Positions 1,940 through 62,890 are shown, counted from the first letter of the stretch. The stretch: DNA of 64,000 nt from Deltaproteobacteria bacterium HGW-Deltaproteobacteria-6 (GCA_002840435.1 PHAT01000005.1:36460-100459); one strand, 5' to 3'. Notes: a model not told the origin generated them from the letters alone. Made by a program: numbers and translations.

Positions 1940-1954
1940 ACGTGATTAGATAGC

Positions 1955-2998: not shown

Positions 2999-3000
2999 AA

Positions 3001-3774: not shown

Positions 3775-3819
3775 CGGGCATCTGATATTTAAAAAAAGAA
3801 GTGACCGATGTGAAAAAAT

Positions 3820-5001: not shown

Positions 5002-5009
5002 GAACAAAA

Positions 5010-7839: not shown

Positions 7840-7848
7840 ATCCGGCAA

Positions 7849-8742: not shown

Positions 8743-8794
8743 AGCGTATGTCGTGGTTTGCGATTCACGAGATGCAAGATACGGGGAAAAATCC

Positions 8795-9847: not shown

Positions 9848-9853
9848 GCCTTT

Positions 9854-20820: not shown

Positions 20821-20836
20821 TTCAAACCGGACATGA

Positions 20837-39097: not shown

Positions 39098-39111
39098 TAC
39101 ATCCTCAAAAG

Positions 39112-39960
<849 letters not shown>

Positions 39961-39970
39961 GTTATACCAT

Positions 39971-40825: not shown

Positions 40826-40826
40826 T

Positions 40827-41741: not shown

Positions 41742-41762
41742 GCTGTTATCGAACCTGAACCA

Positions 41763-43863: not shown

Positions 43864-45033
43864 TTATAGTGGTGGGGGAATAATAAAGCGATCCCCGTAA
43901 ATATTAAGGCGCGCGGCAATCCCGCCGGCAATCTTATGAGGCAAAGGAATAAACACCTGCCCCTGGTTCGGCAGTTTTCGCGGATGATACACTTTTCGTT
44001 CCAGGAAAGATCTGCCGATCCGCGCTTCATCTTCATCAACAAAAAAGGAAACGCGCTCCGGGATTTCATTATACAGCCAGACCCCGGCAATAGACGTTCC
44101 GAATATTCCTAACTCTTCATGGTCGGCAATTCTTGTGGCACAGGCAATATTTTCTATCAGCCACGCAATCGCTTCCGAGAGCCGGCGCTGAGAATCCTGC
44201 ACGCTGGTCATACGGGTCGTTTCTTTGACTTCATCATTGACCCTGGCCAACACGGTTATTTCCTTAGAGACAAATTCGGTCGATACAAGAACCGGTTCGA
44301 ATCCGCATTGTTCCAGAAGCTGCCGAATGGCGCAGACATCAAAATGCGTGCAGTGGTCGGCAATAACCAGATCAAAAGGATTTTGCGTGTAATCAGGAAT
44401 TTCAATCAGGACCATTCCATCACGATTCAGTTTTTCCTTCACGAGCAGAAGAAACCGGCGGGGATCGGAGATATGCTCCAGGCAATGAATCATGGAAATC
44501 AAATCAAAGCTTGCGGGGACTTTCGAGAGATCGCAGCTGTAAAACTGATCGACATGCGCGATCGCCTCGACAGCGTTCCGGTTTTTTTCGTCAAATTCCA
44601 GCCCGGACAGCGACCATTGCGGACAATGTTTGGAAAATGATTTCAACAGATTGCCGTTCCCGCACCCGACATCCAGCAGCGTTCCTGAAAAAGGGAGTTT
44701 ATTCTCTTTCAACAACTGAGCCAGGATCGATTCCGACCGGGACATGGAAAGGCCGCGTGATTGGTCAAAAACCTTTTGCTCTTCGCCGCCCGCCTGATAA
44801 TATACCTCGTAACTTCTATAGATGGCCTCGCAATCGCGCAAGAAGGCATCATCCGTAATTTTTTGCACAAAACCGCAGGACAGGCAAATGCCGAGCTGTC
44901 CCCCTCTTTTCCAGGGACGGCAATCCGAAGTGACTTGCGCCAATGAAGAAAATTCTCCAATAACCTGCATATCAGGGGATTGGCAAACATGGCATGTTTT
45001 ATCGGACTGAACCGCAATTTCAGGCTTCATCAT
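43864..45033 (-). CDS. SAM-dependent methyltransferase with an N-terminal Zn-ribbon and a C-terminal extra domain
   Basis: 389 aa with CHVCQS...CLSCG, motif I LLDVGCGNGNLL, and a ~130-aa C-terminal domain. Confidence 0.65.
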   Translation of the reverse strand: MMKPEIAVQSDKTCHVCQSPDMQVIGEFSSLAQVTSDCRPWKRGGQLGICLSCGFVQKITDDAFLRDCEAIYRSYEVYYQAGGEEQKVFDQSRGLSMSRSESILAQLLKENKLPFSGTLLDVGCGNGNLLKSFSKHCPQWSLSGLEFDEKNRNAVEAIAHVDQFYSCDLSKVPASFDLISMIHCLEHISDPRRFLLLVKEKLNRDGMVLIEIPDYTQNPFDLVIADHCTHFDVCAIRQLLEQCGFEPVLVSTEFVSKEITVLARVNDEVKETTRMTSVQDSQRRLSEAIAWLIENIACATRIADHEELGIFGTSIAGVWLYNEIPERVSFFVDEDEARIGRSFLERKVYHPRKLPNQGQVFIPLPHKIAGGIAARLNIYGDRFIIPPPL

Positions 45034-45078: not shown

Positions 45079-46248
45079 TCATTGAACCCCATACGATGAT
45101 TGTACTGGATTGATCTTCAGCGATGTTCTTTTCGAGGCCATTTCCGACGATCGGATAATACCTTTTTTCTGCAGATAATCGGCCACACGGTCGGCGGCGA
45201 TTTCCGTTCCTCTGGCATTCCAGTGCGTATCCGTACGAAAATACAGGCCAAGGTTTTTATTGGCCAGGAAGTCATCCTGCAGATCCACTGCATGAACGCC
45301 TTTCGCCTCCAGCAATCGGATCAATCGGGGGAAATAGCTCTTTGTGAAATCATCCATGGAATCCGCATACAACAGATCCCTGCGTGGAACGAGTACCAGA
45401 ACATAAACATAACCCAACTTTTTCAGGCGCTGGTTGTATTGGTCGATCATATCGATTTGCTTTGCCATATCATTCTCGATATCCGGATCACCGGTAAGAA
45501 CAATTTTATTCCGGTCCTGATCAAAATAAGGAATGCGATACTCTTTTTCACACATATACTCATTAATCCCTTTGGCCCCTACGAAAACATCATGCACTAA
45601 ACCTTTGATCATGCGCATTAATATGGCAAACGGATTGAACCGTTTTACGGTCACCGGCCAAACAGCTTTACGTAAAGGAACATATTCTTTTATTGTGAAA
45701 TTAGCGGGAAAGTAGCTTTTGATGGAAACCGCATAACTTTGCACAACATCGATAATGATTCTCGCATCTTTAAGCTCTTGCTTAGCGAGAAGACTTTCGG
45801 GGGTATTACTTCTTGTCCCGTTGAAGACAGGTTTCCCCAGTTTTACAGCAAGTTTCCAGGGAAATGTTTCGTGATCACTCAGACCGGAACCAAACCCTTG
45901 TGAATCGCCGTATGCGACAATTTCGTAACGATTCGTTTCATAAGGAACGCGGCGAAAACCGTCAGCATCAATGGACACGCGCGTATGGCGCGGTTCCTGA
46001 AAGCGAAACAGATAACTTCTGGACATATCGCCCAGTTCCACTCCTTCCCAGACCTGAGGCATGTTCGGGTTGGGGTGTAAAACTTCCATCAGATATTCCC
46101 ACGCCCGGAAATAGAAAAGAGAAGGTTGATAACGGAAAAGCGCGTAGGAAACAGCAATCGGCATAAAGATCAAAATAATAAGACCGACGGCATACAGGCG
46201 ATGCTTCTTTTCGTTTTCAAAACTGATAATAGAGAAACTCCCGGACAT
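45079..46248 (-). CDS. AlgJ/AlgX-type SGNH-like polysaccharide O-acetyltransferase partner (membrane-anchored)
   Basis: 389 aa with an N-terminal TM anchor, a GDSQGFGSG block, and the RTDTHWN (DxHW) signature of AlgJ/AlgX-like proteins. Overlaps the MBOAT gene by 32 nt. Confidence 0.65.
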   Translation of the reverse strand: MSGSFSIISFENEKKHRLYAVGLIILIFMPIAVSYALFRYQPSLFYFRAWEYLMEVLHPNPNMPQVWEGVELGDMSRSYLFRFQEPRHTRVSIDADGFRRVPYETNRYEIVAYGDSQGFGSGLSDHETFPWKLAVKLGKPVFNGTRSNTPESLLAKQELKDARIIIDVVQSYAVSIKSYFPANFTIKEYVPLRKAVWPVTVKRFNPFAILMRMIKGLVHDVFVGAKGINEYMCEKEYRIPYFDQDRNKIVLTGDPDIENDMAKQIDMIDQYNQRLKKLGYVYVLVLVPRRDLLYADSMDDFTKSYFPRLIRLLEAKGVHAVDLQDDFLANKNLGLYFRTDTHWNARGTEIAADRVADYLQKKGIIRSSEMASKRTSLKINPVQSSYGVQ

Positions 46249-47782
46249 TATCCAGATCGCTCAGACAGAAAGCGGCAATCAGCAGAATAAATGCGAACCA
46301 GGGCAGGCTGGGCCTCCAGCGTAAACGCTGCAGGAAAGCGCCCTTTTTTATGTTCAAGGAATTAAGAACCGGTTTAAAATCAGACATCAATTCACTTGTA
46401 TTAGGCAGAAACCAGACGACTAATACTGTAATGAGAATTACTAAAAACGCGTAATAGAACCAATTAGACGGCAGCGATGAAATAATATTGGGAAAAGCCT
46501 CTACGATTATTCCACCGGGTTTAACTATCTTACCTATCAAAAACATCGGCAGGTTAACAAGGTCATAGGTCATACCCTTGAATATCACCATGGCTTCGGA
46601 AAAGGATTTGGCGCGGAAAGGCACCCAGGCAAATACCACAGCAATAAACGTTAGAGCGCGAGCACAAAATCCGGTCAGCCATTGCCATCGTTCCGGCACC
46701 CGGACGCCGATTCGGCCGGCAATTTTATGCCAGGCCTGATTGATGACCAAATATCCCCCATGCAGACCGCCCCAGAAGACAAAAGTCCAGCCGGCACCGT
46801 GCCACAGACCGGCCAGAAGCATTGTAACCATGACATTGATGTAGCGCCGCAGAGTGCTCTTACGGTTCCCGCCCAATGGAATATACAGATAGTCCCTCAG
46901 GAAGCGGGAAAGCGTTACATGCCAGCAGCGCCAGAATTCAATGATACTTTTTGCTTTGTACGGAGAGAAGAAATTGAGGGGCAGAACAATGTTAAACATG
47001 CGGGCCAGGCCGATGGCCATGTCCGAATAACCGGAAAAATCAAAATAAAGCTGAAACGTAAAAGCAAGAGCTCCCAGCCAGGCTTCAGCTGATGTGAGGT
47101 TGACCCCTTTGCCCGCCGCTTCAAAGACCACATTGGCATAAACGGCAATATTGTCGGCCAGAATAACCTTTTTAAAAAGACCGATAAAAAAAATGGTTAA
47201 TCCGACGGACAGATTGATGAAATGCAGACGGTGGTTTTCCGTTTCTTTAAACTGCGGAATAATCTCCTGATAACGGACAATCGGCCCGGCCGTCAGTTGG
47301 GGAAAAAAACAGACAAAGATGCAATATTCGAGAAAACTGCCCCCTTTGATTTCGCCCCGGTAACTATCCACCAGACAGGCAATCTGCGTGAAAATATAAA
47401 AACTGAGACCAATGGGCACAATGACATGCTGCAAAAGAAAAAACGAATTAGTAACATTATTGACGTTTCCGATAAAAAAATCGGCGTATTTATAATATCC
47501 CAGCACCCCCAGATTAAAAACGATTCCGGCGGTCAGCACCCATTTTGCGTGAACCGGGCGGCTGTCGCGGGGACGCGTCAGCCATCTGAAAAATCCATAA
47601 TTAACGACAATGGAAGCAAGGATAAGAAGGACAAAGGCACGATTCCACCAGCCGTAAAAAAAAAGGGAAGCGCCAAACAGCCAGAAGAGCGCGGCATTTT
47701 TATGCAGCCTGCCAATCAGGAAGAATCCGAGCAGGACAGCGGGCAGGAAGGCAAATATGAAGACGTAGGAGTTAAACAGCAT
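46217..47782 (-). CDS. MBOAT-family membrane O-acyltransferase (AlgI/DltB-like)
   Basis: 521 aa polytopic protein with an MLFNSYVFIFAFLP N-terminus, RCWHVTLSRFLRDYLYIPLGGNR, and a conserved His in AGLWHGAGW. Confidence 0.8.
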   Translation of the reverse strand: MLFNSYVFIFAFLPAVLLGFFLIGRLHKNAALFWLFGASLFFYGWWNRAFVLLILASIVVNYGFFRWLTRPRDSRPVHAKWVLTAGIVFNLGVLGYYKYADFFIGNVNNVTNSFFLLQHVIVPIGLSFYIFTQIACLVDSYRGEIKGGSFLEYCIFVCFFPQLTAGPIVRYQEIIPQFKETENHRLHFINLSVGLTIFFIGLFKKVILADNIAVYANVVFEAAGKGVNLTSAEAWLGALAFTFQLYFDFSGYSDMAIGLARMFNIVLPLNFFSPYKAKSIIEFWRCWHVTLSRFLRDYLYIPLGGNRKSTLRRYINVMVTMLLAGLWHGAGWTFVFWGGLHGGYLVINQAWHKIAGRIGVRVPERWQWLTGFCARALTFIAVVFAWVPFRAKSFSEAMVIFKGMTYDLVNLPMFLIGKIVKPGGIIVEAFPNIISSLPSNWFYYAFLVILITVLVVWFLPNTSELMSDFKPVLNSLNIKKGAFLQRLRWRPSLPWFAFILLIAAFCLSDLDNVREFLYYQF

Positions 47783-49630: not shown

Positions 49631-50302
49631 CTATTCAAAATAAATAAAAGAATGATCGCCGGTATATCCGCAGAGATCAAACCACCACTGCCATTCTTCC
49701 GGAGTATTGAATGCTTCGCAGGTGACCTGCCAGTAAAGCAGGTTGGCTTTTTCGATTTCGTTCCGATAGGATTCAACACAGAGGTATTTTTTGTCTCTGC
49801 CGACCCGCTGCATTTCGCGAAGGGCCTTGTCCAGGTCATAACAATGCAGGTTGTGCAATGTTGTAATGGAGTAAACAAAATCAAAATAGTTGTCGGGAAA
49901 GGGCAACTGGTTTGCATTTCCGACTTTCAGGCGATCTTTGATTTCTTCCTTGGCATTAGCGATCGCGTAATCGGATATGTCGATCCCGTAAATTTCGACG
50001 CCGGGGACCAGCAGCGAAATCTCATAGAGTAAAAAGCCCTTGCCGCAGCCGATATCCAGAATTTTATCACCCGGCTTAATGCCGTAGTGATCGATCATTG
50101 CTTTGGCTACGGGAGCCCAGCGCCCCGCCATATAACGGTAGCCGCCGTAACAGATTCTGCGGTCGCCGTCCCAGTAGTCGAAGGCCCATCTCTTGGCCAG
50201 TTCGGCCGCTTTGGCCTTGGGATACTCCGGATCGTTGACCCGGGCCAGGTAATCTCTCTTTGTGCTTTTGTGAATTACGGACAAAAAATCAATATAGGAC
50301 AT
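49631..50302 (-). CDS. Class I SAM-dependent methyltransferase
   Basis: 223 aa with motif I ILDIGCGKGFLLYEI. It starts 4 nt downstream of the kinase gene. Confidence 0.65.
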   Translation of the reverse strand: MSYIDFLSVIHKSTKRDYLARVNDPEYPKAKAAELAKRWAFDYWDGDRRICYGGYRYMAGRWAPVAKAMIDHYGIKPGDKILDIGCGKGFLLYEISLLVPGVEIYGIDISDYAIANAKEEIKDRLKVGNANQLPFPDNYFDFVYSITTLHNLHCYDLDKALREMQRVGRDKKYLCVESYRNEIEKANLLYWQVTCEAFNTPEEWQWWFDLCGYTGDHSFIYFE

Positions 50303-50306
50303 ATTG

Positions 50307-51410
50307 CTAATTCCTTTTTCTCCCGGCGTCCAATTGTTGAAGCGATGTCAGCAATTGTTTGGCCTTGGTCAGCTGTTCTTTTTTTTGTTTACCCGCCGCG
50401 CCCTGAGCAAAGATCCTCCTGTCTGAGGCGACAGGAAGAAAATGATTAAGCAGGATACAGCACCATTTAATGCGATAGACCGGCAGCAGAAGGGTCATTC
50501 TTCTCAGCGTCGACTCGCGTTCGGAAAAAATATCGGCGATGGAATCCAGCACCTCATCCTTATACATGACGGGAACCGGCACCGCCACCTGACTGAAAAA
50601 ATCTCCGGTCAGCTTGGCCGGATCATCCCAACCCGCGTATTCAAAATCCAGGAAGGCAATCGTGCCGTCCGGACGCCGCAAAGCATTGTGAAATCCGAAA
50701 TCCGAAGGAGAGATCACGCGCTGCTCCGGCAACAATTCGGCATCCGGCTCCATACCTTCCTCCGTTAGTTGCAGAAGTATTTTCTCCGTAATCTGTCCGA
50801 AAGCCGGCGCAAGCTCCGCCCGCACAAATGCCAGGGCTTCCCGGTCTATCGGCAGGGCAGGATTGATTCCATTGATCCGGTCAATTCTTCTTTTAACTAC
50901 GGCTAAATGTTGATGGATGGAAAAACAGGCTTCGGACCCCAGGGGAAGTTCACGGGCTTCCGGCGTCTCCCGGAAACGGTTCAATGAGGCAATAAACGCC
51001 CGGGCCTGACCGATGTCTGTCCGGGAAAGTGTTCCCGGAAGGATTCGCTCCCCATCAATGAATTCGAAAAGACCAAGTCCTTCCGTCGTGTCGCAGGCGA
51101 TCGCTTCAGGAATACAGCGCAATCCATTGGTCCAGGCAAATCTGGCCAGCGCGAATTCCGACCCCAGGCGGTCGCGGGTATCTCCGGGATGACGAAAATA
51201 TTCTTTGAGAACATAAGTCCGGGAGCCGGCTTCCACGCGGTAAATCCGGTTGTTCCCCCCCAGGCCCAGCGGAACCAGTTCAGTGCCTGCTGCGGCGCCG
51301 ATCGAGGAAAAAAGCCGTGCGGCCCGGGAACACACGTCAAGGAGTGCCTTATCCGACTTATCCTGCATTCCGGCCCCGGAAGTAGTCAGCAATTTCTTCC
51401 CAGGAAGCAA
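50307..51410 (-). CDS. APH/choline-kinase-fold phosphotransferase
   Basis: 367 aa with a nucleotide-lobe GGNNRIYRV...VLKEY and a catalytic region SPSDFGFHNAL...IAFLDFEYAGWDDP. The start may be the ATG at 51368. Confidence 0.6.
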   Translation of the reverse strand: MLPGKKLLTTSGAGMQDKSDKALLDVCSRAARLFSSIGAAAGTELVPLGLGGNNRIYRVEAGSRTYVLKEYFRHPGDTRDRLGSEFALARFAWTNGLRCIPEAIACDTTEGLGLFEFIDGERILPGTLSRTDIGQARAFIASLNRFRETPEARELPLGSEACFSIHQHLAVVKRRIDRINGINPALPIDREALAFVRAELAPAFGQITEKILLQLTEEGMEPDAELLPEQRVISPSDFGFHNALRRPDGTIAFLDFEYAGWDDPAKLTGDFFSQVAVPVPVMYKDEVLDSIADIFSERESTLRRMTLLLPVYRIKWCCILLNHFLPVASDRRIFAQGAAGKQKKEQLTKAKQLLTSLQQLDAGRKRN

Positions 51411-51966
51411 ACCTCAACATCCCGCAGGCAACGGTCTGCGCGTCCGGTGAAAACAACATCCGCGCCGTATTGGCGGGAAAGCCTTCAGCACACAGGATTT
51501 CGGGGAGATCGTCAATGAAATGCGTGCATCCCGCCGCGCCGATTCTGGACAATTTTTCTTCTTTGGTCAGTTCAAAAAAAACCTGGTCCATGACGAGGCC
51601 CGCCGTTTCGAGAAATCCGCTGGATGCCAGCCAGTTTCGTGCCGCCTCGTGAAGATCGTAGCGATTTCCACGATAGGGATAACGCGTTTTGTGACTGATG
51701 ATATAAACTGTGGCTCCCCGATTGGTCAGGCTTCTGATGCAATCGGCAGCACCCTTAAAGGTCTCCACCGTTTCCATGCGGGAGCCATAAACATACCCCT
51801 GCAATTCGGTCCAGCTGTCTTCCTTCCCGATACGTCTCAGATAATCGCGAACATGCCCTTTGGTAACCGGTGTATCCGGCGGAATCAGTCGCTGCTCGCA
51901 GGCCGCCTGATGAAAAGCCCCGTCGTAACAAACGATGGTATTATCGAAATCAATCCCTACGATCAT
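51358..51966 (-). CDS. HAD-superfamily phosphatase
   Basis: 202 aa with motif I VGIDFDNTIV, and ISHKT and FIDD motifs. Confidence 0.6.
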   Translation of the reverse strand: MIVGIDFDNTIVCYDGAFHQAACEQRLIPPDTPVTKGHVRDYLRRIGKEDSWTELQGYVYGSRMETVETFKGAADCIRSLTNRGATVYIISHKTRYPYRGNRYDLHEAARNWLASSGFLETAGLVMDQVFFELTKEEKLSRIGAAGCTHFIDDLPEILCAEGFPANTARMLFSPDAQTVACGMLRFASWEEIADYFRGRNAG

Positions 51967-52891
51967 TGATTGCTTTCAGACGATATTCCACGTCGCCTGC
52001 GATCCCGTCCGGCGTGAGGCCAAAGTGTTCGCGTGCATAATCCTGCTTGCCTGCCATACAAAAGAACTGATCGGAAACCCCCTTGCAGAGCAGGCGCGCC
52101 CGTTTCGCCGGACCCCGGGAAAGCCATTCCGCCACGGCACTGCCGAAGCCGCCGATCAAATTATGTTCTTCCACGGTCGCGACCAGCCGGACTTCGGAAA
52201 ATACCCGGTCCAGCAGGGACTCATCCAGGGGTTTGAGGGTGTGAAAATTAATAACTTTTGTGGAGATTCCCCGGGCTTCCAACGCCGCTGCCGCCGCCAG
52301 CACCACAGACATGATCGTACCGGTCCCGAGCAGACAGACATCTTTTCCTTCCCGCATGACGACGCCGCTGCCGATGGCAAAGGAAGGTTCCGCATCATAG
52401 AGAGCGGGCTCGCCTTTTTTCCCCAACCGTAAATAAACCGGTTGATCCTGCCGCAAGGCCGCGCGCAGGGCCAGACGGGCTTCCAAGGGGTCCGCCGGAT
52501 TGATAATCTGCATATTGGGCAGACTGCGCAGACAGGCAATGTCTTCGCAGGAGTGGTGCGTCGCCCCAAGTTCCGCATAAGACAGACCGCTGCCCACACC
52601 GGCAACAATCACCGGGAGATTGTGGTAGGCGATATCGATTTTAATCTGTTCGAAACAGCGGATCGTGTTGAAGGCCGTAATAGTATAGGTAATCGGCCGC
52701 AGTCCGCTCATAGCCATGCCCGCAGCCATGCTGGTCATATTCGCCTCGGCAACGCCGCAATTGTAAAAACGATCCGGAAAGTTCTTCTTGTAATCATCAA
52801 AGAGGCGGTTCCCGATGTCGCCGGAAAGCAATACGATGCGACTGTCTTCTCCCGCCAGTCTGGTCAGTTCCTTCGCAAAGGCATTTCTCAT
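51950..52891 (-). CDS. Transketolase, C-terminal (pyrimidine-binding) subunit
   Basis: 313 aa with CGVAEANMTSMAAGMA and THHSCEDIA motifs typical of split transketolase subunit B. Confidence 0.8.
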   Translation of the reverse strand: MRNAFAKELTRLAGEDSRIVLLSGDIGNRLFDDYKKNFPDRFYNCGVAEANMTSMAAGMAMSGLRPITYTITAFNTIRCFEQIKIDIAYHNLPVIVAGVGSGLSYAELGATHHSCEDIACLRSLPNMQIINPADPLEARLALRAALRQDQPVYLRLGKKGEPALYDAEPSFAIGSGVVMREGKDVCLLGTGTIMSVVLAAAAALEARGISTKVINFHTLKPLDESLLDRVFSEVRLVATVEEHNLIGGFGSAVAEWLSRGPAKRARLLCKGVSDQFFCMAGKQDYAREHFGLTPDGIAGDVEYRLKAINDRRD

Positions 52892-53712
52892 GTCAGACGC
52901 AGCTCCTTTCTGGCTTTCAGGACTTCTTCCGCCGTGGGGATACGGTAGTGCCAGTTATTGTCGTCTTCCATAAACGATACACCCTTCCCCTTTACCGTAT
53001 GAGCAATGATGACGGTCGGTCTGCCGCTGCCATCGGGCAACCCCTTCAGAGTCTCAACGAGGGCGGTCAAGTCGTGTCCGTCCACTTCATAAGCGCTCCA
53101 TCCGAATGCTTCCCATTTTTCTTTCAAAGGGTCGATGGCCATGACTTCGCGGCTTCGTCCGGTCGCCTGCCATTTATTGAAATCGATAACGGCAACAACG
53201 TTGCCGATACGCTGTGCCGGAGCGAACATGGCCGCCTCCCAGACGGAACCTTCATTACACTCACCATCGCTCATGAGGACATAAACATTATAGGACTGTT
53301 TCTGAATGCGGCCGGCCAGTGCCATTCCCAGTCCCAGAGACAGGCCGTGCCCCAGAGAACCCGTGGCCGCTTCCACACCCGGGACACAATGCGGACTCGG
53401 GTGCTCCGGCAGGCAGCTTCCATGACAGGCGTAATCCGCAAGCGTCTCCAGAGGGAAAAATCCCCGCCTGGCCAATGTTACATAGAGGGCCGTGGCCGCG
53501 TGCCCCTTGCTGAGAATAAAGCGGTCGCGCAGAGGATCATCGGGCTTCGCGGGATTAATGGACAGCTTTTGCCAGAAGAGCGCCACCATGATATCCACGC
53601 AGGAAAGCGCCGATCCCAGGTGGGCGCCGCCGGTCCGGTGGGACATTTCCACCAGCATACCCCTGATTTCCCGGGCTGTCTGGTCCAACTGATCGATTGA
53701 TAATGACGTCAT
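52888..53712 (-). CDS. Transketolase, N-terminal (ThDP-binding) subunit
   Basis: 274 aa with HLGSALSCVDI, GSLGHGLS, and the ThDP motif SDGECNEGSVWEA. 4-nt overlap with the C-subunit gene. Confidence 0.8.
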   Translation of the reverse strand: MTSLSIDQLDQTAREIRGMLVEMSHRTGGAHLGSALSCVDIMVALFWQKLSINPAKPDDPLRDRFILSKGHAATALYVTLARRGFFPLETLADYACHGSCLPEHPSPHCVPGVEAATGSLGHGLSLGLGMALAGRIQKQSYNVYVLMSDGECNEGSVWEAAMFAPAQRIGNVVAVIDFNKWQATGRSREVMAIDPLKEKWEAFGWSAYEVDGHDLTALVETLKGLPDGSGRPTVIIAHTVKGKGVSFMEDDNNWHYRIPTAEEVLKARKELRLT

Positions 53713-53717
53713 GTGAT

Positions 53718-54662
53718 TTATTCCAGATTCTCAATTTGTTTCATGGTTCTGATATTATACCAGAGGTCGCGGTCTTTCAGATCACCGGCCCGGAAAGCCT
53801 CGATGATTCCCAGAATTGCATCATTCACCGTGTACTTCTGAGTAAAACCCGTTGACAGCAGCTTATCGGAATTAATGCGATAGGATCGGGGATCATTTGA
53901 TTCCGAAACAATAATTTCCGCGGGCACATGCTCCGTCACCCGCTTGGCGATGTCCAGAATCGATATGTTTTCAAATCCGGCATTGAAAACGCCCGGCGCC
54001 TTGTCGCCAAGATTCAGGAAATGAATAAAGACATTGGTAATGTCCTGAATGTGAATATTGGGACGCGTCTGGTCCCCGCCGAAAACGGTGATTCGTCCGT
54101 TGGTCAGGGCCTGCATGGTCAGCATGTTTACGGAAACGTCAAGACGCATGCGGGGCGAGAAACCGCAGACCGTTGCGGGACGGACACATTGAACGGTGAT
54201 GAGATCTTTGTAACTCAGCAGGACCCGCTCACTGATCATTTTTGTCTTGTTGTAGTCGGAAATCGGAACCAGGGAAAGGTCTTCCGTTACCTTTAGTTCA
54301 TCCTTAACGCCGTAGACACTGCCGGAGCTGGATAAGATAAATTGTTTTACCTTATGCGCAATGGCCTTTTCCACCATGCCCATGGTTGCCAGAACATTGA
54401 CCTCCCATGCTAATTTCGCATTAAGATCCCCGCAGGGGTCGTTGGCAATATTGGCCAGATGGATGATGGCATCGATGCCCTCCATGGGGATCTCATCCGT
54501 GTTGCGGATATCGCCCCGGATAACTTTTAAATTCTTATGTTCGGGAAGGAAATTGCCGAACCATTGAATGTCATAAACGGTCACGCTGTGACCCAGGTTT
54601 AAGAGTTTCGGTGTTAAAACACTGCCGATATAGCCGCAACCACCTGTTACTAGAATATGCAT
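53718..54662 (-). CDS. NAD-dependent sugar epimerase/reductase (SDR)
   Basis: 314 aa with MHILVTGGCGYIGS and YNKTK motifs. Confidence 0.7.
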   Translation of the reverse strand: MHILVTGGCGYIGSVLTPKLLNLGHSVTVYDIQWFGNFLPEHKNLKVIRGDIRNTDEIPMEGIDAIIHLANIANDPCGDLNAKLAWEVNVLATMGMVEKAIAHKVKQFILSSSGSVYGVKDELKVTEDLSLVPISDYNKTKMISERVLLSYKDLITVQCVRPATVCGFSPRMRLDVSVNMLTMQALTNGRITVFGGDQTRPNIHIQDITNVFIHFLNLGDKAPGVFNAGFENISILDIAKRVTEHVPAEIIVSESNDPRSYRINSDKLLSTGFTQKYTVNDAILGIIEAFRAGDLKDRDLWYNIRTMKQIENLE

Positions 54663-54671
54663 TTTCGCTCC

Positions 54672-55670
54672 TTATGGTTTATGAATATAGTCAAAAGGTT
54701 GTCTCTTGATTTCTTCCAGATTGTCTTTTACCCAGGCAATCGTTTCTTCAATACCCTGCTCGAGGCTGATTTTGTCCTGCCATTGCAGTTTTTCTCTGGC
54801 GCTGGTACTGTCCAGCGTGTAGGCGGCGTCCTTACCCAGGCGTTCACCCACAACTTCCACATTCTCGTCGAACGACGCCCCTAGCTGAGCGGCAATCATT
54901 TCCACGAGATTCCTGATGGAAAGGTTTCTGGCCGTCGAAAAGTGATATATTTCCCCCGGCGACGCCTGTCTTGCGACACGGAGCGTTCCATCGGCAACGT
55001 CACGGAAGTGAATAAAAGAACGGATGGAATGCCCTCCGCCATGCAGTTGAAGTTTCCGGCCGATCAGAAAAAATAGAATCGTCCTGGGAATAATTCGATA
55101 AAGTTGCTGTCCCGGTCCGTAAACATTGGCTGCCCGGGTAAACGCCACCGGGAAACCATAGGCTTTTTGAAAGCTCATCAAACTCATATCCGCCGCGGCG
55201 CGGGAAACGGCATAGGGTGTGCTGGGATTGTAGTTCGTGCTTTCCCTGACGAGTCCCTCGCAGGAACCGTAAACTTCCGGGGTGGAGACATGAACATATT
55301 TCTTCAAAAAGTCTCTCTTACGCAATTCATCATGGAGTTGAATGGTGGCGACAACATTGGTCTGAAACCAGTGGACCGGATTTCGCCAGCTTTCCGCCAC
55401 CATGGATTGGGCGGCAAAGTTTACCACGTAGTCCGGGCGCTGCTCGTCGATGATTTTCATAATCCTGTCCAGATCGCGATTGAGATCCAGCTCAAAGAAC
55501 CGGAATCCGGATGTGTCTCTTTTCTTGTAGGGAAGGAATACAGCGTGGGGCTCCGGTGAACGGCTGATCCCAATCGTTTCAATTCCTTCTCCCAGGAGAT
55601 AATCCACAAAACTGGCGCCGGAGAACGAATTGCTCCCTATGACCATTACTTTTTCACTCATCTGTTTCAA
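54672..55670 (-). CDS. NDP-sugar 4,6-dehydratase-like extended SDR with an atypical YxxxR
   Basis: 332 aa with VMVIGSNSFSG (a variant of GxxGxxG) and VSTPEVYG. The catalytic position reads YAVSR instead of YxxxK. Confidence 0.6.
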   Translation of the reverse strand: MKQMSEKVMVIGSNSFSGASFVDYLLGEGIETIGISRSPEPHAVFLPYKKRDTSGFRFFELDLNRDLDRIMKIIDEQRPDYVVNFAAQSMVAESWRNPVHWFQTNVVATIQLHDELRKRDFLKKYVHVSTPEVYGSCEGLVRESTNYNPSTPYAVSRAAADMSLMSFQKAYGFPVAFTRAANVYGPGQQLYRIIPRTILFFLIGRKLQLHGGGHSIRSFIHFRDVADGTLRVARQASPGEIYHFSTARNLSIRNLVEMIAAQLGASFDENVEVVGERLGKDAAYTLDSTSAREKLQWQDKISLEQGIEETIAWVKDNLEEIKRQPFDYIHKP

Positions 55671-56245
55671 ATAGAATTCCTTTCCACGATTTTATCGATC
55701 CAATGGTGCAGAATGGCGGCATGGCATGTTTCGGCGGAACCGTAAGTTGTTGCCGAAACATAAAAATTTATCAATCCCCTGCCGGACAAAGGATTATCCG
55801 GGTGCATCGCCGAAAGCGTCACCACGGTGCCTCCCAATCTCGCTGCTTCGTCCGCGGCTTTGAGGACATTCATGGACCGCCCGGAACTACTGATGGCGAC
55901 CAGCATGTCGCCCTTTCTCATTCGACGGCGCAAGGGTTCGGCAAAGACTTCGTCATAACTGACGTCATTCGCGATCGCCGTAATCAACGATAAATCGGAA
56001 AATACTTCCGTATGAACATGGCCGTTCTTTGCCAAGTCGGCCGCAACATGGCTGGCCATGGAAGCACTGGCGCCGTTGCCGATCAGAAATATGGTATTTT
56101 GCCTGTCTCTGATATTCAGCGCCAAATCGATCCACCGGCCAAAAGCGTCATCTGCGGGCATGCTGTTCTTGTCGCCGTCCAAAGCGGACAGACACCGGAG
56201 ACGTTGTGTTATTTCATCGACATTTGATAACCAGTTCATCTTCAT
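55667..56245 (-). CDS. SIS-domain sugar-phosphate isomerase (GmhA-like sedoheptulose-7-P isomerase)
   Basis: 192 aa with IFLIGNGASASMASHVAADL and VAISSSGRSMNV motifs of the GmhA-type SIS fold. Confidence 0.7.
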   Translation of the reverse strand: MKMNWLSNVDEITQRLRCLSALDGDKNSMPADDAFGRWIDLALNIRDRQNTIFLIGNGASASMASHVAADLAKNGHVHTEVFSDLSLITAIANDVSYDEVFAEPLRRRMRKGDMLVAISSSGRSMNVLKAADEAARLGGTVVTLSAMHPDNPLSGRGLINFYVSATTYGSAETCHAAILHHWIDKIVERNSI

Positions 56246-56985
56246 ATCCCTGTGTTTTCGGCCAATTGATTTTTGTATTGATTGCTTACGGCCGGATACT
56301 CCCGGCAGGCTGCTTCGTAACTTTCGATCGTACCGATATCCCGGTGATAAATATCGTTATGGAATGTGTTGATGCGACCGATATAATGGGGAATGACTTC
56401 CGTGCTGAAGTCAATAAATTCCTTTTTCAGACCCTCAAGATATGTAAACAGGGACGGTTCGATGATATAAACGGCTCCGTTGGCCCTGTCGCCGGGAGGG
56501 TTGGCTACCTTTTCATAAAAAGCCTGGACACACCCTTGATGATCCGTTTCGATAATGCCGCAGCTTTGGGGCGTGGGAGTTTTAAATGTCATCATGGTTA
56601 TTTCACACCCTGCAGGACGGTTCTGATGGCTGTCGATAAATGCCCGCACATCGAATACGGAAAGGTTATCAGCATGGACAAGCATCATCGCCTCATTGCC
56701 GAAAAACTCCCGATTTTTTAAAAGCGTCCCCCCGGTGCCCAATAATTTATCTTCATGGATTGTAGCAACATATTTTTTTAACGGACTCTGATCAATAAAA
56801 TGAGCAACTTTATCCGCATGGTGATAAAGATTTACCAGCATGGGATATACGCCGCTCTCATAAAGCATGGTCATCCAGTAATACAAAAGTGGCTTGCCGT
56901 CAATCGCAATGAGACATTTGGGAATATCATTGGTTAACGGCCGCAAACGCGTACCCAGTCCCGCTGCAAGCAGTAGCGCTCTCAT
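56242..56985 (-). CDS. Sugar-1-phosphate nucleotidyltransferase (HddC/ManC-like)
   Basis: 247 aa with MRALLLAAGLGTRLRPLT signature and LGTGG. 4-nt overlaps on both sides. Confidence 0.75.
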   Translation of the reverse strand: MRALLLAAGLGTRLRPLTNDIPKCLIAIDGKPLLYYWMTMLYESGVYPMLVNLYHHADKVAHFIDQSPLKKYVATIHEDKLLGTGGTLLKNREFFGNEAMMLVHADNLSVFDVRAFIDSHQNRPAGCEITMMTFKTPTPQSCGIIETDHQGCVQAFYEKVANPPGDRANGAVYIIEPSLFTYLEGLKKEFIDFSTEVIPHYIGRINTFHNDIYHRDIGTIESYEAACREYPAVSNQYKNQLAENTGI

Positions 56986-58505
56986 GGTACAACCTTCTTC
57001 CCGTTGATTTCCATTTTTAAATCATGCGTGGTCAGGGGAATATTGCCAATCCGCCCTATCTGACAGGCGGAGGCCAGTGACCCGATATAGGAACTTTTCC
57101 AGATATCGGCGCCTACCGCCATGGACATGGAGGTACAGGTCAAATAGGAATCGCCGGCTCCCGATACATCCTTGGGGGCCGTATTGAAAGCGGGAAGTCT
57201 GTCGGTTAACCAGTCGCTTGCCTTTTCCGTTTCCGCATGGATCAGAACGCCCTCTTCATCCAGGGTAATGATGACGTTTCTGGCGCTTGCTTTTTTTCTT
57301 AATTTCTCCGCAAGAACCACAAGACCTGACTCAAAATCATGTACGGCAAAACGGGCCTCCCGTTCGGTGGGCGTTACCAGCATCATTCCCTGAAACCGCG
57401 ACACGTCGCCAACCTGCGAGGATGATTGACTATCCGCAACCATCATAATCCCTTTTTGAAGACAAAATGATGTAACCTGATCCACGAGCGGTTGCGGAAG
57501 GCAGCCATAATTGAAGTCCGAAAATATGATCAGATCCATACCATCAAGAACATCCAACATATCCCTGTAGAATCGTTCTCTGATTTCACTGGAAATCGCA
57601 TGCTGACGCAAATGACTGACTCTCAGCAACGTTTTCTGCCGGGCACGGAATCTTTGCTTCAGTGTTGTCGGCCTGCTTTCATCCGGGAACAAATGGGCAT
57701 TGACACCCAGCGCGGTCAGCTTTTCTTTCGCATAATCAGCTGTTTCATCTTTGCCGACAACGGAAAAGAAGTGAACATCGGCGCCCAATCCTCTGGCATG
57801 GAGAGCAACAATTCCCGCCCCTCCGAGAAATTTCTCGTGCGCTACGGGCGTGACCACAATCGTGGGATCTTCCTGCGACATGCCGAGGGCATCGCAGGTA
57901 ATATATTCGTCAACTATCGTATCTCCCAGGACGCAGACTTTCAAATCCCTCATTTTGTCGGCAATGCCGGCTAATTCACGGAAACTGAAATTATGCCGCT
58001 TGGGATAGTCAACGGGTTTTTTAATGGATGAAACGGACAACTCTTTCCACTCGGTGTTCATTAAATCCACTGAAGAAAAACTGATTTCACCGGAACCGAA
58101 TATTAATTTCCCGCCATTGCGACTGAGAACATCCTTCTCCGGATTATCCATTTCCTCGTGCTCTTTTCCCTTGACCACAAAAGCCGGTTTAAGTTTTTCA
58201 ATAAAGGCGATAACCGGCTCATGGAGGATGAATGAATAGTCCACCCAGGCGATAGCTTGAATGCTCTCCAGACGCAGTTGTTCATCGACAAAAGAACCGG
58301 GGGATTTATTGTCCAGCACACCCACAACCAGATAATCACCACATTCCCTTGCAAATCGAAGCAGCCGGAGATGCCCCGGATGGATAATATTAAAATTACC
58401 GGAAACAAAGACGATTTTTTTCTTTAGCGTTTGCTTTTTTATCTGTTTTAATTCAATGCTGTTGCTCATAGTCCAATCCCGTTCATTTGAAATTTGTCCG
58501 GACAA
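56982..58505 (-). CDS. Bifunctional HldE-like protein with reversed domain order (N-terminal cytidylyl/adenylyltransferase, C-terminal PfkB sugar kinase)
   Basis: 507 aa. The N-terminal part has GNFNIIHPGHLRLLRFA (HxGH) aligning to RfaE domain II. The C-terminal part has VLGDTIVDEY...EDP...GGAG...DVSGAGDS aligning to RfaE domain I. Confidence 0.7.
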   Translation of the reverse strand: MSGQISNERDWTMSNSIELKQIKKQTLKKKIVFVSGNFNIIHPGHLRLLRFARECGDYLVVGVLDNKSPGSFVDEQLRLESIQAIAWVDYSFILHEPVIAFIEKLKPAFVVKGKEHEEMDNPEKDVLSRNGGKLIFGSGEISFSSVDLMNTEWKELSVSSIKKPVDYPKRHNFSFRELAGIADKMRDLKVCVLGDTIVDEYITCDALGMSQEDPTIVVTPVAHEKFLGGAGIVALHARGLGADVHFFSVVGKDETADYAKEKLTALGVNAHLFPDESRPTTLKQRFRARQKTLLRVSHLRQHAISSEIRERFYRDMLDVLDGMDLIIFSDFNYGCLPQPLVDQVTSFCLQKGIMMVADSQSSSQVGDVSRFQGMMLVTPTEREARFAVHDFESGLVVLAEKLRKKASARNVIITLDEEGVLIHAETEKASDWLTDRLPAFNTAPKDVSGAGDSYLTCTSMSMAVGADIWKSSYIGSLASACQIGRIGNIPLTTHDLKMEINGKKVVP

Positions 58506-58506
58506 C

Positions 58507-59631
58507 TCATGAAATCAATTCCCCGACATGCTTCCCGATAGCCAGACACGATGTCATCCCGGGCGATTCGATGCCAATCAGGTTTATTAAACCGTGCATT
58601 CCACAGTCGCTTTCTTCCCGGATGACAAAATCCATCGCCGGGTCGCCGGGTCCCTGAATCTTGGGTCGTATGCCGCTCATGTCCGGGGTCAGAGCATCCA
58701 GGGAAACACCGGGAAGATATCTTTGGATCGACTCGTGAAAAGCTGTTTTCAGGCCTTCATCCACGGCATAGTCGAACGCCCTGTCATCGGACAAATAGCG
58801 GCTGTCAGGACCGAAGCGCACACGCCCGGAAAGATCAAGTGTTGCGTGGATACCGAGGCCAACGTTATTTTTCACGGGAACAGGGTAGATGAGATGATGA
58901 ATCCGGGGTGATGGCGCCGCTGTGAAATAATTCCCTTTACAGGGCTTTAACCGGTAGCCCGCCGCATCAATGTCTATGCCGGTAAGAGCGGCAATAAGAT
59001 CGGCGGAAAGTCCGGCGCTGTTGATAAGAGTTTTTGTGCTGATGCGGTACTCGCCGTTATTAATCTCCAAATCCCAGACGGACCCGTCGAAATGAATGGC
59101 CGTCACTTCCGACCGATAGGTAATGATGGCCTCTTTTTTCCCGGCGCTTGCCAGCAGTGTTTGCATCAGCCGATGTGTGTCAATGATCCCGGTATCGGGA
59201 GAGAACAGAGCCGCCACGGCATTCACTTCCGGCTCTTTGGATTTGAGTTGCACCCGTCCCAGAAGCTCAAGTTTTTCGACACCATTATCATGTGCCGTTA
59301 TTTTGATTCGTTCCAGATCGGCACATTCCGCTTCGTTGGTCGCCACGATCAGCTTGCCAATCCGCCGATGAGGAACATGATGCTTTTCACACCAGCTGTA
59401 AAGAAGACGGTTGCCTTGAAGGCAAAGGTGGCTTTTCAGGAATTCTTTCGGGTAATAGATCCCCGCATGAATAACTTCACTGTTGCGGGAACTTGTTTCC
59501 TGGCCGAAGGAATTGTTTTTTTCCAGGACGACAACCTGACGGTTTCTTACCGCCACGGCTTCGGCAATCGCCAAGCCGACAACTCCTGCGCCAACGATGA
59601 CAATATCAACTGTTTCGTTCATCTGCATCAA
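58507..59631 (-). CDS. FAD-dependent oxidoreductase (DAO family; L-2-hydroxyglutarate/glycerol-3-P oxidase-like)
   Basis: 374 aa with the dinucleotide motif VDIVIVGAGVVGLAIA. The track start is a TTG; an ATG follows one codon later. Confidence 0.7.
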   Translation of the reverse strand: MMQMNETVDIVIVGAGVVGLAIAEAVAVRNRQVVVLEKNNSFGQETSSRNSEVIHAGIYYPKEFLKSHLCLQGNRLLYSWCEKHHVPHRRIGKLIVATNEAECADLERIKITAHDNGVEKLELLGRVQLKSKEPEVNAVAALFSPDTGIIDTHRLMQTLLASAGKKEAIITYRSEVTAIHFDGSVWDLEINNGEYRISTKTLINSAGLSADLIAALTGIDIDAAGYRLKPCKGNYFTAAPSPRIHHLIYPVPVKNNVGLGIHATLDLSGRVRFGPDSRYLSDDRAFDYAVDEGLKTAFHESIQRYLPGVSLDALTPDMSGIRPKIQGPGDPAMDFVIREESDCGMHGLINLIGIESPGMTSCLAIGKHVGELIS

Positions 59632-59906: not shown

Positions 59907-60284
59907 CTATTTCACCGGAAATTGCTTTGAATTAACTTCCTGCTCCAACTGCCGGATTTCTTCCTCCAGCCTTTCATATTCTGCCAGTTTCAACTTTAGA
60001 AAGCGATAAGTGATCTTTGCTTTTTCTTCGATGCCCCTTGGCGTCAGGTAATACAGGTATGCAATTTTATTATTGGAGTTTTTAAAATTATTTGCTTTGA
60101 CAAAACCCTTTTCAATCATAGCCTTCATTAAAAAATTGATTTTGCCGAGACTTAAGCCCAGGTGAGACGACAGCTCACGCTGTGTCATTTGCGGATTCGT
60201 ATCGATGACCCGCATAAGCATGAGAGACTCTTCCGTATCTATTTTTAATCTCTGATTCATAGTCATGTCCGTCGTGTTCATCAC
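59907..60284 (-). CDS. MarR-like winged-helix transcriptional regulator (EPS-associated type)
   Basis: 125 aa with the wHTH MTQRELSSHLGLSLGKINFLMKAMIEKGFV and a C-terminal coiled coil. It lies within a polysaccharide locus. Confidence 0.65.
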   Translation of the reverse strand: MMNTTDMTMNQRLKIDTEESLMLMRVIDTNPQMTQRELSSHLGLSLGKINFLMKAMIEKGFVKANNFKNSNNKIAYLYYLTPRGIEEKAKITYRFLKLKLAEYERLEEEIRQLEQEVNSKQFPVK

Positions 60285-61807: not shown

Positions 61808-62890
61808 TTAATCCTTCCCGTACATTTTTTCATAATACTCGCGGTAGCTGCCGTCGGTCACGGAGGCAATCCAGTCTTGATGATCCAGATACCATTCAAC
61901 GGTCTTGCGCATCCCGTCCTTAAAATTTACCCGGGGATTCCATCCGAGCTGCGTGCGGATCTTTGTGGCGTCAATGGCGTAGCGGCGATCATGTCCGGCG
62001 CGGTCTTTGACGTAGGTAACCAGCGTTCTTCTGTTCTTGCCGCCGGACAATAGGCCGACTTTTTCATCCAGAAGATCACAGATCGTGTGGACGATTTCAA
62101 TGTTTTGTTTTTCGCTGTTTCCGCCGATGTTGTAAGTTTCGCCAGCCAGCCCGCGGGCAATGACGGTTAGAATCGCCTCACAATGATCAGCAACATAGAG
62201 CCAATCCCGGACATTTTTGCCGTCGCCGTAAACCGGCAAAGACTTCCCCTGCAGGGCGTTGTTGATGATCAGCGGGATGAGCTTTTCCGGAAACTGGTAG
62301 GGTCCGTAATTGTTGGAACAATTGGTAATCAGCGTCGGCAGGCCATAGGTATGAAAATACGCACTGACCAGATGGTCGGAAGATGCCTTGCTGGCGGAAT
62401 AAGGCGACCGGGGATCATAGGGGGTGGTCTCCTGAAAAGCGCCGGTGTCGCCAAGAGATCCGTAAACCTCATCGGTGCTGACATGCAGAAATCGACAGCC
62501 CTTGTCCGACGGGTTGCCCGAAGAATCGGAGAGCCATGAGTCGCGCGCCGCTTCCAGAAGGTTGAAGGTTCCCATAATATTGGTCTGTACAAATTCAGCC
62601 GGTCCGGTAATGCTGCGATCCACATGAGACTCAGCGGCAAAATGAATGACGGTATCGATCTGTTCGTCGGCAAAGATTTTTCTGACCAAAGCGGCATCGC
62701 CGATATCGCCCTTCACAAAGCGATACCGCGGACTCCTTTCAATATCCGTCAAATTGCCGGGATTGCCGGCGTAAGTCAGCTTGTCCAGATTGGTCAGGTG
62801 ACAATCGGGATAATGCTCCAGCATGTGGCGGACAAAATTTGATCCGATAAAACCGCATCCGCCTGTTATCAGTACTCGCTTCACTATCAA
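61808..62890 (-). CDS. rmlB: dTDP-glucose 4,6-dehydratase
   Basis: 360 aa with [23 protein letters not shown] and [11 protein letters not shown] motifs. Confidence 0.9.

Follow-up and report, generated by a model that had tools for sequence, protein, structure and literature searches.

Gene Content of the Block

We analyzed a 64,000-nucleotide stretch of DNA from Deltaproteobacteria bacterium HGW-Deltaproteobacteria-6 (GCA_002840435.1, PHAT01000005.1:36460-100459), referred to here as the window. Positions 50307-59631 hold ten open reading frames (ORFs) on the minus strand, arranged back to back, with neighbors overlapping or spaced by only a few bases. Sequence comparison identifies this block as a copy of a cassette that comprises eleven gene families, is conserved and has spread horizontally; the copy in the window has gained a flavin adenine dinucleotide (FAD) oxidase. 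Domains were called with Pfam and NCBIfam, in addition to motif and orthologue comparisons and matches to the PDB. An earlier first-pass annotation had described eleven overlapping genes. Its enzyme identities were borne out by Pfam, NCBIfam and the HAD motifs, but the count was not: both the ORFs and the names that it listed number ten.

The gene at the head of the block encodes a DAO-type FAD oxidoreductase (58507-59631; Pfam DAO, E = 1.7e-64). It is followed by a protein in which an N-terminal cytidylyltransferase-like (CT) domain is fused to a C-terminal PfkB kinase domain, a "reversed HldE" (56982-58505; Pfam), by an HddC-like sugar-1-phosphate nucleotidyltransferase (NTase; 56242-56985; Pfam NTP_transferase) and by a GmhA-like SIS sugar-phosphate isomerase (55667-56245; Pfam SIS_2). 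Next come two short-chain dehydrogenases/reductases (SDRs). SDR1 (54672-55670) is RmlB-like, falls below the TIGR01181 cut-off and, from the comparison with Bradyrhizobium sp. BTAi1 described below, is an orthologue of Bradyrhizobium gdh; SDR2 (53718-54662; Pfam Epimerase) belongs to the extended SDRs and may act as an epimerase or as a reductase. A transketolase (TK) is split between TK-N, the thiamine diphosphate (ThDP)-binding subunit of 274 residues (52888-53712; Pfam Transketolase_N), and TK-C, the pyrimidine-binding subunit of 313 residues (51950-52891; Pfam Transket_pyr and Transketolase_C). The block ends with a 202-residue HAD-superfamily protein (51358-51966), recognized by its HAD motifs, and a small-molecule kinase of the APH/choline-kinase fold (50307-51410; Pfam APH), which probably starts near 51368. 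None of the ten proteins reaches an NCBIfam curated cut-off, so that all must be regarded as divergent relatives of the enzymes after which they are named.

As limits of the module, 50307 and 59631 are too narrow, since two cassette genes on the same strand lie outside them. A class I S-adenosylmethionine-dependent methyltransferase, MT223 (49631-50302; Pfam Methyltransf_31/11/25, with a weak UbiE match), is contiguous with the ten block genes, and a Zn-dependent alcohol dehydrogenase (Zn-ADH; 42767-43840; Pfam ADH_N and ADH_zinc_N) lies ≈5.8 kb downstream, with five genes in between.

A Conserved Cassette in Distant Bacteria

The ORFs of the 79 loci that best matched the fusion protein of the window were collected, with 10 kb on either side, and clustered. 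Because the loci were chosen by their fusion match and limited to 10-kb flanks, the sample is biased and the co-occurrence counts given here are lower bounds. The NTase gene stands directly after the fusion gene in 65 of the 79 loci. The genes for TK-N, TK-C, HAD, APH and the class I methyltransferase move as one block in 18-20 loci, with MT223 (66-86% identity) following the APH gene in about 20; this TK block is found in 18/79 loci and is absent from most cassettes. Zn-ADH is the third most frequent neighbor of the fusion gene (33 loci), and is usually located either directly upstream of it or after MT223.

Cassettes with the TK block (type A) have the order CT-PfkB, NTase, SIS, SDR1, SDR2, TK-N, TK-C, HAD, APH, MT, Zn-ADH, which is reproduced exactly in locus L006. 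Sister cassettes (type B) comprise SIS, SDR1, (SDR2), pyruvate-dehydrogenase-like E1 alpha and beta subunits, a short-chain reductase, a YerE-like ThDP enzyme, an FkbM methyltransferase, Zn-ADH, CT-PfkB and NTase, and have the E1-alpha/beta and YerE-like enzymes in the place of the TK. We considered whether the TK block and the heptose genes might be modules separable from each other and rejected this, since the CT-PfkB gene was present in all three contexts found by seeding with the kinase (Herbaspirillum seropedicae, Microcoleus and a Bacteroidota contig).

All eleven families (11/11) were found together in Alphaproteobacteria, Syntrophales and Omnitrophota; Betaproteobacteria, Desulfobacterota and Bacteroidota have nearly complete sets, and the cyanobacterium Microcoleus has a partial one. 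Overall, the cassette occurs in Alpha-, Beta- and Deltaproteobacteria, Nitrospirota, Omnitrophota, Bacteroidota, Acidobacteriota, cyanobacteria and Leptospira. The fusion protein is 60-88% identical across phyla and has relatives in at least 586 species genomes, the closest being in metagenome-assembled genomes of Syntrophales, Deltaproteobacteria and Negativicutes; the GC content of the host is ≈48%. The recurrence of the same gene set and order in such distant phyla shows that the arrangement is due to more than chance. The DAO oxidoreductase gene is accessory and falls outside the eleven-gene core: a close homologue adjoins the cassette in only about three of the 79 loci (L003/L007 at 73% and L017 at 50% identity), and the gene is missing from the BTAi1 operon. 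The nearest NCBIfam families of the protein are L-2-hydroxyglutarate oxidase and type 2 glycerol-3-phosphate oxidase, both below cut-off.

Several local features accompany the cassette in the window. The GC content is 0.54-0.55 across the TK/HAD/APH part (50000-54000) and 0.40-0.50 for most of the cluster, a rise that fits a mosaic, horizontally acquired cassette. Next to Zn-ADH lies the gene for a 389-residue methyltransferase (43864-45033), a possible twelfth, optional member of the cassette, with homologues beside the cassette at 11 further loci. A small winged-helix protein (HTH_24; 59907-60284) is encoded at the head of the module, between rmlC and the DAO gene, and is a possible local regulator.

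Correspondence with the Bradyrhizobium gdh Operon

Bradyrhizobium ORS285 loses its O-antigen, a bradyrhizose homopolymer, when gdh is disrupted by insertions (Busset 2016, PMC4743980). The gene is annotated as a dTDP-glucose 4,6-dehydratase; it belongs to an 11-gene cluster with perfect synteny in six photosynthetic strains (PMC4743980). In 2016 this operon was only proposed as the source of bradyrhizose, the genes for synthesis being otherwise unknown (PMC4743980), and we found no later paper on the enzymology of the operon in the literature searched.

The gene-specific parts of the ORS285 gdh primers encode DAFLPYK and DMSLRTYF; motifs of the form ..FLPY.. and DMSL.... are found in most cassette SDR1s and are absent from true RmlB. 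While an exact scan of metagenomes with the forward primer gave no match, a degenerate scan with the reverse primer picked out 40 loci, all of them SDR1 genes and all flanked by the cassette wherever the flanks sufficed. One of these metagenome loci (L118) encodes an SDR1 whose sequence is the same as that of ABQ37593.1 from Bradyrhizobium sp. BTAi1. On the BTAi1 chromosome (CP000494.1, 5865969-5886967; locus L129), exactly eleven genes form one co-directional run, in the order CT-PfkB, NTase, SDR2, SIS, SDR1, TK-N, TK-C, Zn-ADH, HAD, APH, MT, with an MBOAT gene upstream and three TylF-like genes downstream. Both ORS285 primers map within the BTAi1 SDR1 gene, ≈380 bp apart, with two and one mismatches, respectively.

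When the window proteins were compared with BTAi1 by tblastn, 11/11 families were matched at 41-65% identity (E = 1.8e-13 to 7e-153). The identities were 65% for SDR2, 62% for TK-N, 58% for MT, 57% for both SDR1 and TK-C, 54% for CT-PfkB, 49% for HAD, 47% for NTase, 42% for both SIS and Zn-ADH and 41% for APH. The MBOAT membrane O-acyltransferase flanking the cassette in the window (46217-47782, minus strand; Pfam MBOAT) was matched over its full length at 42%. The sequence signatures of the cassette, a Gly/Leu pair in TK-C and (S/T)TPEVYG with YxxxR in SDR1, were likewise found. The gdh operon of photosynthetic Bradyrhizobium (ORS285, ORS278 and BTAi1) and the window module thus have in common the eleven families, the TK pocket and SDR1 signatures, the MBOAT flank, TylF-type methyltransferases nearby and a lipopolysaccharide (LPS) O-antigen setting. 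They differ in that the order in the window is partly shuffled, with Zn-ADH displaced by ≈5.8 kb and the FAD oxidase added at the head, in their host organisms, and in that the cluster around the window module also provides for sulfation and for export by Wzm/Wzt and includes several methyltransferases; for both, the product is a putative one.

The match of all eleven families, together with the shared signatures, makes the window module a member of the gdh operon family: judged by its genes, it is a new member of a known family with a predicted enzymology. We consider it slightly better than an even bet (a probability of roughly 0.55) that the product of the cassette is a heptose-derived, C2-extended, C-methylated higher sugar of the nucleotide-activated bradyrhizose type, destined for O-antigen.

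The Transketolase

The solved structures closest to the two TK halves are those of the split TK from Carboxydothermus hydrogenoformans (6yak for TK-N, E = 5.5e-68; 6yaj for TK-C, E = 7.8e-60), which shares the split architecture. Against NF004559, the halves, scored singly against a whole-enzyme cut-off of 488 bits, reached 277 bits (N) and 179 bits (C). The donor side is that of a canonical TK, with both the ThDP GDG...N motif and the donor-side histidines in place. In TK-N, residues D149, G150, E151, E154 and G155 and the histidines H31, H71 and H255 are invariant in 17/17 cassette copies, and the donor-side H104 is His in 13 of the 17.

The acceptor side is different. The pocket was surveyed in an alignment of 21 cassette copies of TK-C, human TK and the enzyme of C. 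hydrogenoformans. His416 of human TK is replaced by Gly and Asp424 by Leu in all 21 copies, Arg474 is Lys in 19/21, and Ser345 is Arg or Lys in 17/21, while Arg318 is kept. In the window TK-C, which lacks the canonical acceptor- and phosphate-binding residues, R29, G100, L108 and K158 take the places of human S345, H416, D424 and R474 (E. coli S385, H461, D469 and R520), and the Gly/Leu signature is shared by TK-C of BTAi1. In contrast, the C. hydrogenoformans TK keeps the canonical His, Asp, Arg and Ser at the four positions that are changed in the cassette enzymes. With the donor side kept and the acceptor side altered, the TK should still carry glycolaldehyde on ThDP, but for a different acceptor. 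The view that this is not a housekeeping transketolase was supported.

The first-pass annotation had also proposed that the TK guarantees a supply of sedoheptulose-7-phosphate. This did not hold up: the acceptor His and Asp are replaced in 21/21 copies, E1/YerE enzymes substitute for the TK in the sister cassettes, and the TK genes travel with HAD, the APH kinase and the methyltransferase rather than with the isomerase. The lost acceptor residues and the exchange for E1/YerE, which cannot make sedoheptulose-7-phosphate, argue against a feeder role. Probably, therefore, the label "transketolase-fed" was wrong, whereas the heptose-type chemistry and the unusual TK were correctly recognized from the sequence. 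The gene-for-gene match to the bradyrhizose operon suggests that the TK most likely builds the skeleton of the sugar instead of providing an ordinary heptose precursor.

ThDP-dependent branching of nucleoside diphosphate (NDP)-4-keto sugars is carried out by YerE, ErwE and MMAR_2332 and by E1 pairs of the AviB1/B2 type, and the window shares with these systems a ThDP enzyme encoded beside a 4-oxidizing SDR. YerE-type enzymes add acyl groups to NDP-4-keto sugars (PMC9306805). Since the window enzyme is a true TK-family pair, however, the unit transferred should be glycolaldehyde, derived from a ketose or hydroxypyruvate, and not the acyl group of a 2-oxo acid.

The skeleton could alternatively be extended before activation, as in the second option of the first-pass annotation. 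The TK would then add C2 to a free sugar phosphate (e.g., at the C1 aldehyde of heptose-7-phosphate or hexose-6-phosphate), giving a long ketose-phosphate that SIS, APH, HAD and the HddC-like transferase would activate and that the SDRs, Zn-ADH and the methyltransferase would tailor as an NDP-sugar. This is the main rival to a nucleotide-activated heptose as the acceptor. R2 is retained in the pocket, which has acquired Arg/Lys at two positions and may therefore still bind a more distant phosphate, while the change from Asp to Leu could reflect a manno-configured C2-OH in the acceptor. Moreover, the TK, HAD and APH genes form one block, in which HAD and APH are sometimes fused, and a kinase plus a phosphatase is the signature of making a sugar-1-phosphate from a terminal phosphate. 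Starting from sedoheptulose-7-phosphate, however, a single isomerase would have to perform two ketose/aldose conversions. The NTase accompanies the fusion protein even in cassettes without APH/HAD, and is thus not specifically the partner of APH, and the sister cassettes use E1/YerE enzymes, of which the YerE type acts on NDP-keto sugars. On balance, extension at the sugar-phosphate level seems the less likely of the two.

Sugar-Activating Enzymes

The fusion protein probably starts near 58469, giving a length of 495 residues, and consists of CTP_transf_like (residues 34-116) and PfkB (189-489) Pfam domains. This transferase-then-kinase order is the reverse of that in HldE, and the score against NF008454 (156 bits) is far from the cut-off of 521; the best NCBIfam matches are rfaE_dom_I (192 bits) and rfaE_dom_II (62 bits), both below cut-off. 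The best solved structure for the PfkB domain is a heptose-7-phosphate kinase (4e84), and HPGH and GAGD motifs are invariant. The CT domain also matches ethanolamine-phosphate cytidylyltransferase in the PDB. Heptose nucleotidyltransferases have the motif (F/L)xxGxSTT (PMC11461863), whereas the window fusion protein reads FGSGDISFSS.

The solved structure closest to the NTase is HddC (6jq8/5xhw). The protein has an N-terminal LAAGLGTRLRPLT motif and scores 71 bits against the HddC equivalog NF049965 (cut-off 300). All matches of the SIS protein to solved structures are phosphoheptose isomerases or DiaA. It keeps the GNG.S..A.H, IAND..YD.VF and ISSSG.S motifs (phosphate-binding and His residues), with Asp at the position of the catalytic Glu, and reaches 65.8 bits against the GmhA equivalog TIGR00441 (cut-off 209).

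The heptose-type activation enzymes listed in the first-pass annotation are thus present: a GmhA-like isomerase, an HldA-like kinase, HldC-like and HddC-like transferases and a HAD protein. Its suggestion of two differently activated products was not borne out by the co-occurrence data, in which the fusion and NTase genes nearly always stay adjacent (65 of the 79 loci), with or without the APH kinase.

Compared with the ADP-L-glycero-beta-D-manno-heptose pathway (GmhA, HldE or HldA plus HldC, GmhB, HldD), the module shares GmhA-, HldA- and HldC-like parts, but has the reversed domain order, scores far below the cut-offs and no HldD, while gmhB lies elsewhere in the window. With the GDP-D-glycero-alpha-D-manno-heptose/6-deoxyheptose pathway (GmhA, HddA, GmhB, HddC, DmhA, DmhB) it shares an HddC-like transferase, a dehydratase-like SDR and a second SDR; its kinase, however, has the APH fold and is not a GHMP-type HddA, and SDR1 is RmlB-like instead of GMD-like and lacks the dehydratase Asp. 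Compared by description, the lincosamide octose pathway (LmbR, LmbN, LmbP, LmbK, LmbO) follows the same logic of C–C bond former, isomerase, kinase, HAD and nucleotidyltransferase, but its transaldolase (LmbR) and GHMP kinase have no counterpart among the domains of the window module, which has TK and APH instead.

A plus-strand operon for lipid A and core synthesis at 11-11469 encodes BamA, LpxD, LpxA, LpxB, MsbA, LpxK, LpxL, two GT9 heptosyltransferases and GmhB, the heptose-1,7-bisphosphate 7-phosphatase (9854-10441; TIGR00213, 150.0 bits against a cut-off of 149.6). As the first-pass annotation had noted for the window, this operon contains no gmhA, hldE or hldD, and GmhB may serve the cassette module. 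The module might then simply supply sedoheptulose-7-phosphate for ordinary or 6-deoxy NDP-heptose, with the duplicate kinases and transferases yielding ADP-beta and GDP-alpha forms. The presence of heptose-type enzymes would be consistent with this, as would the composition of the core operon and the similarity of the TK to a biochemically active split TK. Yet the residues that bind the phosphate and C2-OH of ribose-5-phosphate are gone from every cassette TK, the TK block is confined to 18/79 loci and is swapped for enzymes that cannot make the heptulose, the APH kinase is not a GHMP-type HddA, and no protein attains the curated cut-offs for GmhA, HldE or HddC. We therefore regard plain precursor supply as very improbable.

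Predicted Tailoring Enzymes

SDR1 scores 207 bits against TIGR01181 (cut-off 365). The SDR1 family has (S/T)TPEVYG and YxxxR in place of the STDEVYG and YxxxK of RmlB, so that the catalytic Thr-Asp-Glu and Tyr-xxx-Lys of RmlB are replaced by Thr-Pro-Glu and Tyr-xxx-Arg. The window also encodes a true RmlB (61808-62890), in which these residues are canonical. In dTDP-glucose 4,6-dehydratase (RmlB), the Asp that is missing from SDR1 is the residue that protonates the leaving 6-OH. The STPEVYG/YxxxR motifs and the lack of the dehydratase Asp fit an oxidation without 6-deoxygenation.

In cassette SDR1s (e.g., L129:10001-10999), Arg takes the place of the near-universal catalytic Lys of SDRs and the glycine motif is GSNSFSG, not GxxGxxG. 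Database labels of SDR1 proteins are either dTDP-glucose or GDP-mannose 4,6-dehydratase. The 90%-identity clusters that hold SDR1 (P0242 and P0390) also list a peptide deformylase (175 residues) and a "transketolase" (282 residues); these odd members look like an artefact of clustering or bookkeeping rather than biology.

SDR2 has a canonical YNKTK motif, and the catalytic Cys-His-Cys zinc ligands of Zn-ADH are invariant. In the PDB, the matches of MT223 are confined to generic class I enzymes; it weakly resembles phosphoethanolamine N-methyltransferases.

The HAD Protein and the APH Kinase

The 202-residue HAD protein had no match among Pfam and NCBIfam families. It nevertheless has HAD motifs I-IV, with D6, D8, T10, S91, K138, D152 and D153 invariant in 16 orthologues, as well as an ≈80-residue insertion after motif I, and is probably a phosphatase. 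In some relatives, HAD and APH are fused into a single protein of ≈547 residues. The Microcoleus locus (L085) encodes, directly after the fusion gene, a separate HAD hydrolase of 191 residues (4339-4914) besides the cassette HAD, which hints that the latter is not the heptose 7-phosphatase.

The APH kinase has invariant SPSDFGFHN and DFEYAGWDDPAK motifs, and many of its relatives also match PF01633 (choline kinase). The family profile had no match among PDB sequences. A predicted model (predicted local distance difference test score of 93) gave choline/ethanolamine kinases, including LicA, and antibiotic kinases as the best Foldseek matches, with template modeling (TM) scores of ≈0.5-0.57. We rejected the fold search as a guide to the substrate, because choline- and antibiotic-kinase matches at TM 0.5-0.57 are generic and do not discriminate.

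These matches could be taken to mean that the cassette has two outputs, an NDP-heptose derivative made by CT-PfkB, NTase, SIS and the SDRs, and a small alcohol phosphorylated and methylated by the TK/HAD/APH/MT enzymes and activated by a transferase, such as a phosphocholine- or phosphoglycerol-like decoration. The choline/ethanolamine-kinase motifs, PF01633 matches and folds related to APH would fit such a product, as would the cytidylyltransferase match of the CT domain and the resemblance of the methyltransferase to phosphoethanolamine N-methyltransferases. However, no gene for an aminotransferase or a LicD-like phosphotransferase moves with the block, which lies beside the CT-PfkB and SDR genes in 3/3 kinase-seeded contexts and beside SIS in 2/3; the APH matches in fold and sequence are generic; and the O-antigen of Bradyrhizobium is reported to be a homopolymer of bradyrhizose alone. 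We consider two outputs very improbable, and the decoration just named equally so.

The Surrounding Polysaccharide Cluster

The block is embedded in one very long minus-strand polysaccharide cluster (≈11.5-64 kb), which also encodes Wzm/Wzt export, rmlABC and RmlD-like reductases, several methyltransferases, an MBOAT/AlgX pair and aminotransferases. Its location in an O-antigen cluster was supported. A CysD-like PAPS_reduct protein, a CysN/CysC fusion, a sulfate/phosphate-type ABC importer and a sulfotransferase are encoded at 36258-42770 and 25535-26452; these genes for sulfate activation, import and transfer within the cluster point to a sulfated O-antigen. A B12-binding radical-SAM protein of 746 residues is encoded at 22037-24277. 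Cassettes from Nitrospirota have two to three such genes beside the E1 pair (L001), which suggests C-methylation of a sugar. Five consecutive ORFs of 340-384 residues (17608-21943 and 24332-25465) had no Pfam match at E = 1e-6, and possibly represent novel glycosyltransferases or polymerase-like proteins.

In Rhodopseudomonas palustris of the CGA009 type (L086, 1-21038), the E1/YerE variant of the cassette is found between flagellar hook-associated/flagellin genes and a gene for a TPR/GT41-like protein, and may serve flagellin glycosylation rather than LPS. A link between the cassette and the O-antigen sugar of CGA009 was considered and dropped: the Mueller laboratory has assigned the C6-branched O-antigen sugar to a different, aldolase-containing cluster (PMC9306805), and the cassette of these genomes is located beside flagellin genes. 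The literature searched for Herbaspirillum O-antigen structures held no usable sugar data.

A Proposed Pathway to a Bradyrhizose-Type Sugar

Bradyrhizose has ten carbons and is an inositol-fused bicyclic sugar; any one of OH-4, OH-5 and OH-9 can close on its C1 (PMC9912281). We take this to imply a bond between C4 and C9. In the scheme that we propose, sedoheptulose-7-phosphate would be converted to NDP-heptose by SIS, the PfkB domain, either GmhB or HAD as the phosphatase, and one or the other nucleotidyltransferase. SDR1 would oxidize C4 with retention of the 6-OH, and Zn-ADH would turn the alcohol at C7, the end of the side chain, into an aldehyde. The TK would then add a two-carbon glycolaldehyde unit (C8 and C9) to the C7 aldehyde, and the methyltransferase would contribute one carbon (C10), for a total of 7 + 2 + 1 = 10. 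From the resulting alpha-hydroxy-ketone end, C9 would attack the C4 ketone in an aldol reaction and close the inositol-like second ring. The APH/HAD pair would possibly place a phosphate on the attacking C9 and later remove it, by analogy with myo-inositol-1-phosphate synthase, which is followed by a phosphatase. SDR2 would carry out a reduction or epimerization, and the finished nucleotide sugar would be incorporated into O-antigen for export via Wzm/Wzt.

The 7 + 2 + 1 count uses each of the tailoring enzymes once, leaving over the second nucleotidyltransferase and DAO. Several points weigh against this scheme, beginning with the second nucleotidyltransferase, for which there is no clear job. 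A kinase/phosphatase pair beside the TK is what would be expected if the skeleton were built at the sugar-phosphate level. The link between the operon and bradyrhizose is genetic and indirect, as the gdh insertions were possibly polar and loss of a primer or adaptor sugar would give the same phenotype. Identities of 41-65%, the displaced Zn-ADH and the added DAO mean that the product in the window may differ from bradyrhizose itself. The roles of the cassette enzymes are predicted, and we infer the order of steps, the reason for having pairs of kinases and of nucleotidyltransferases, how the carbons add up, where the TK acts and how the second ring closes.

Taken as a whole, the chemistry would constitute an undescribed route to carbocycle-fused C10 sugars, in which an NDP-heptose is oxidized, extended by a TK, C-methylated and closed by a phosphate-assisted aldol reaction that depends on the kinase and HAD. 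We put this route forward as a tentative suggestion, clearly more doubtful than the bradyrhizose-type product itself.

Implications

In the literature searched for a TK in O-antigen, rfb or heptose clusters, this cassette was not described, and we know of no TK that has been described as acting on a nucleotide sugar. If the scheme is correct, the cassette enzyme would be the first transketolase in nucleotide-sugar tailoring. The bradyrhizose polymer does not trigger plant innate immunity, and chemical synthesis has been achieved only via 26 steps. Bradyrhizose biosynthesis is now given a testable C7 + C2 + C1 scheme and a short list of enzymes. The interest of the system lies in this scheme, in the specialized TK and in the broad spread of the cassette across very distant bacteria; if our reading is right, bradyrhizose-like sugars would be widespread and not a curiosity of photosynthetic Bradyrhizobium.

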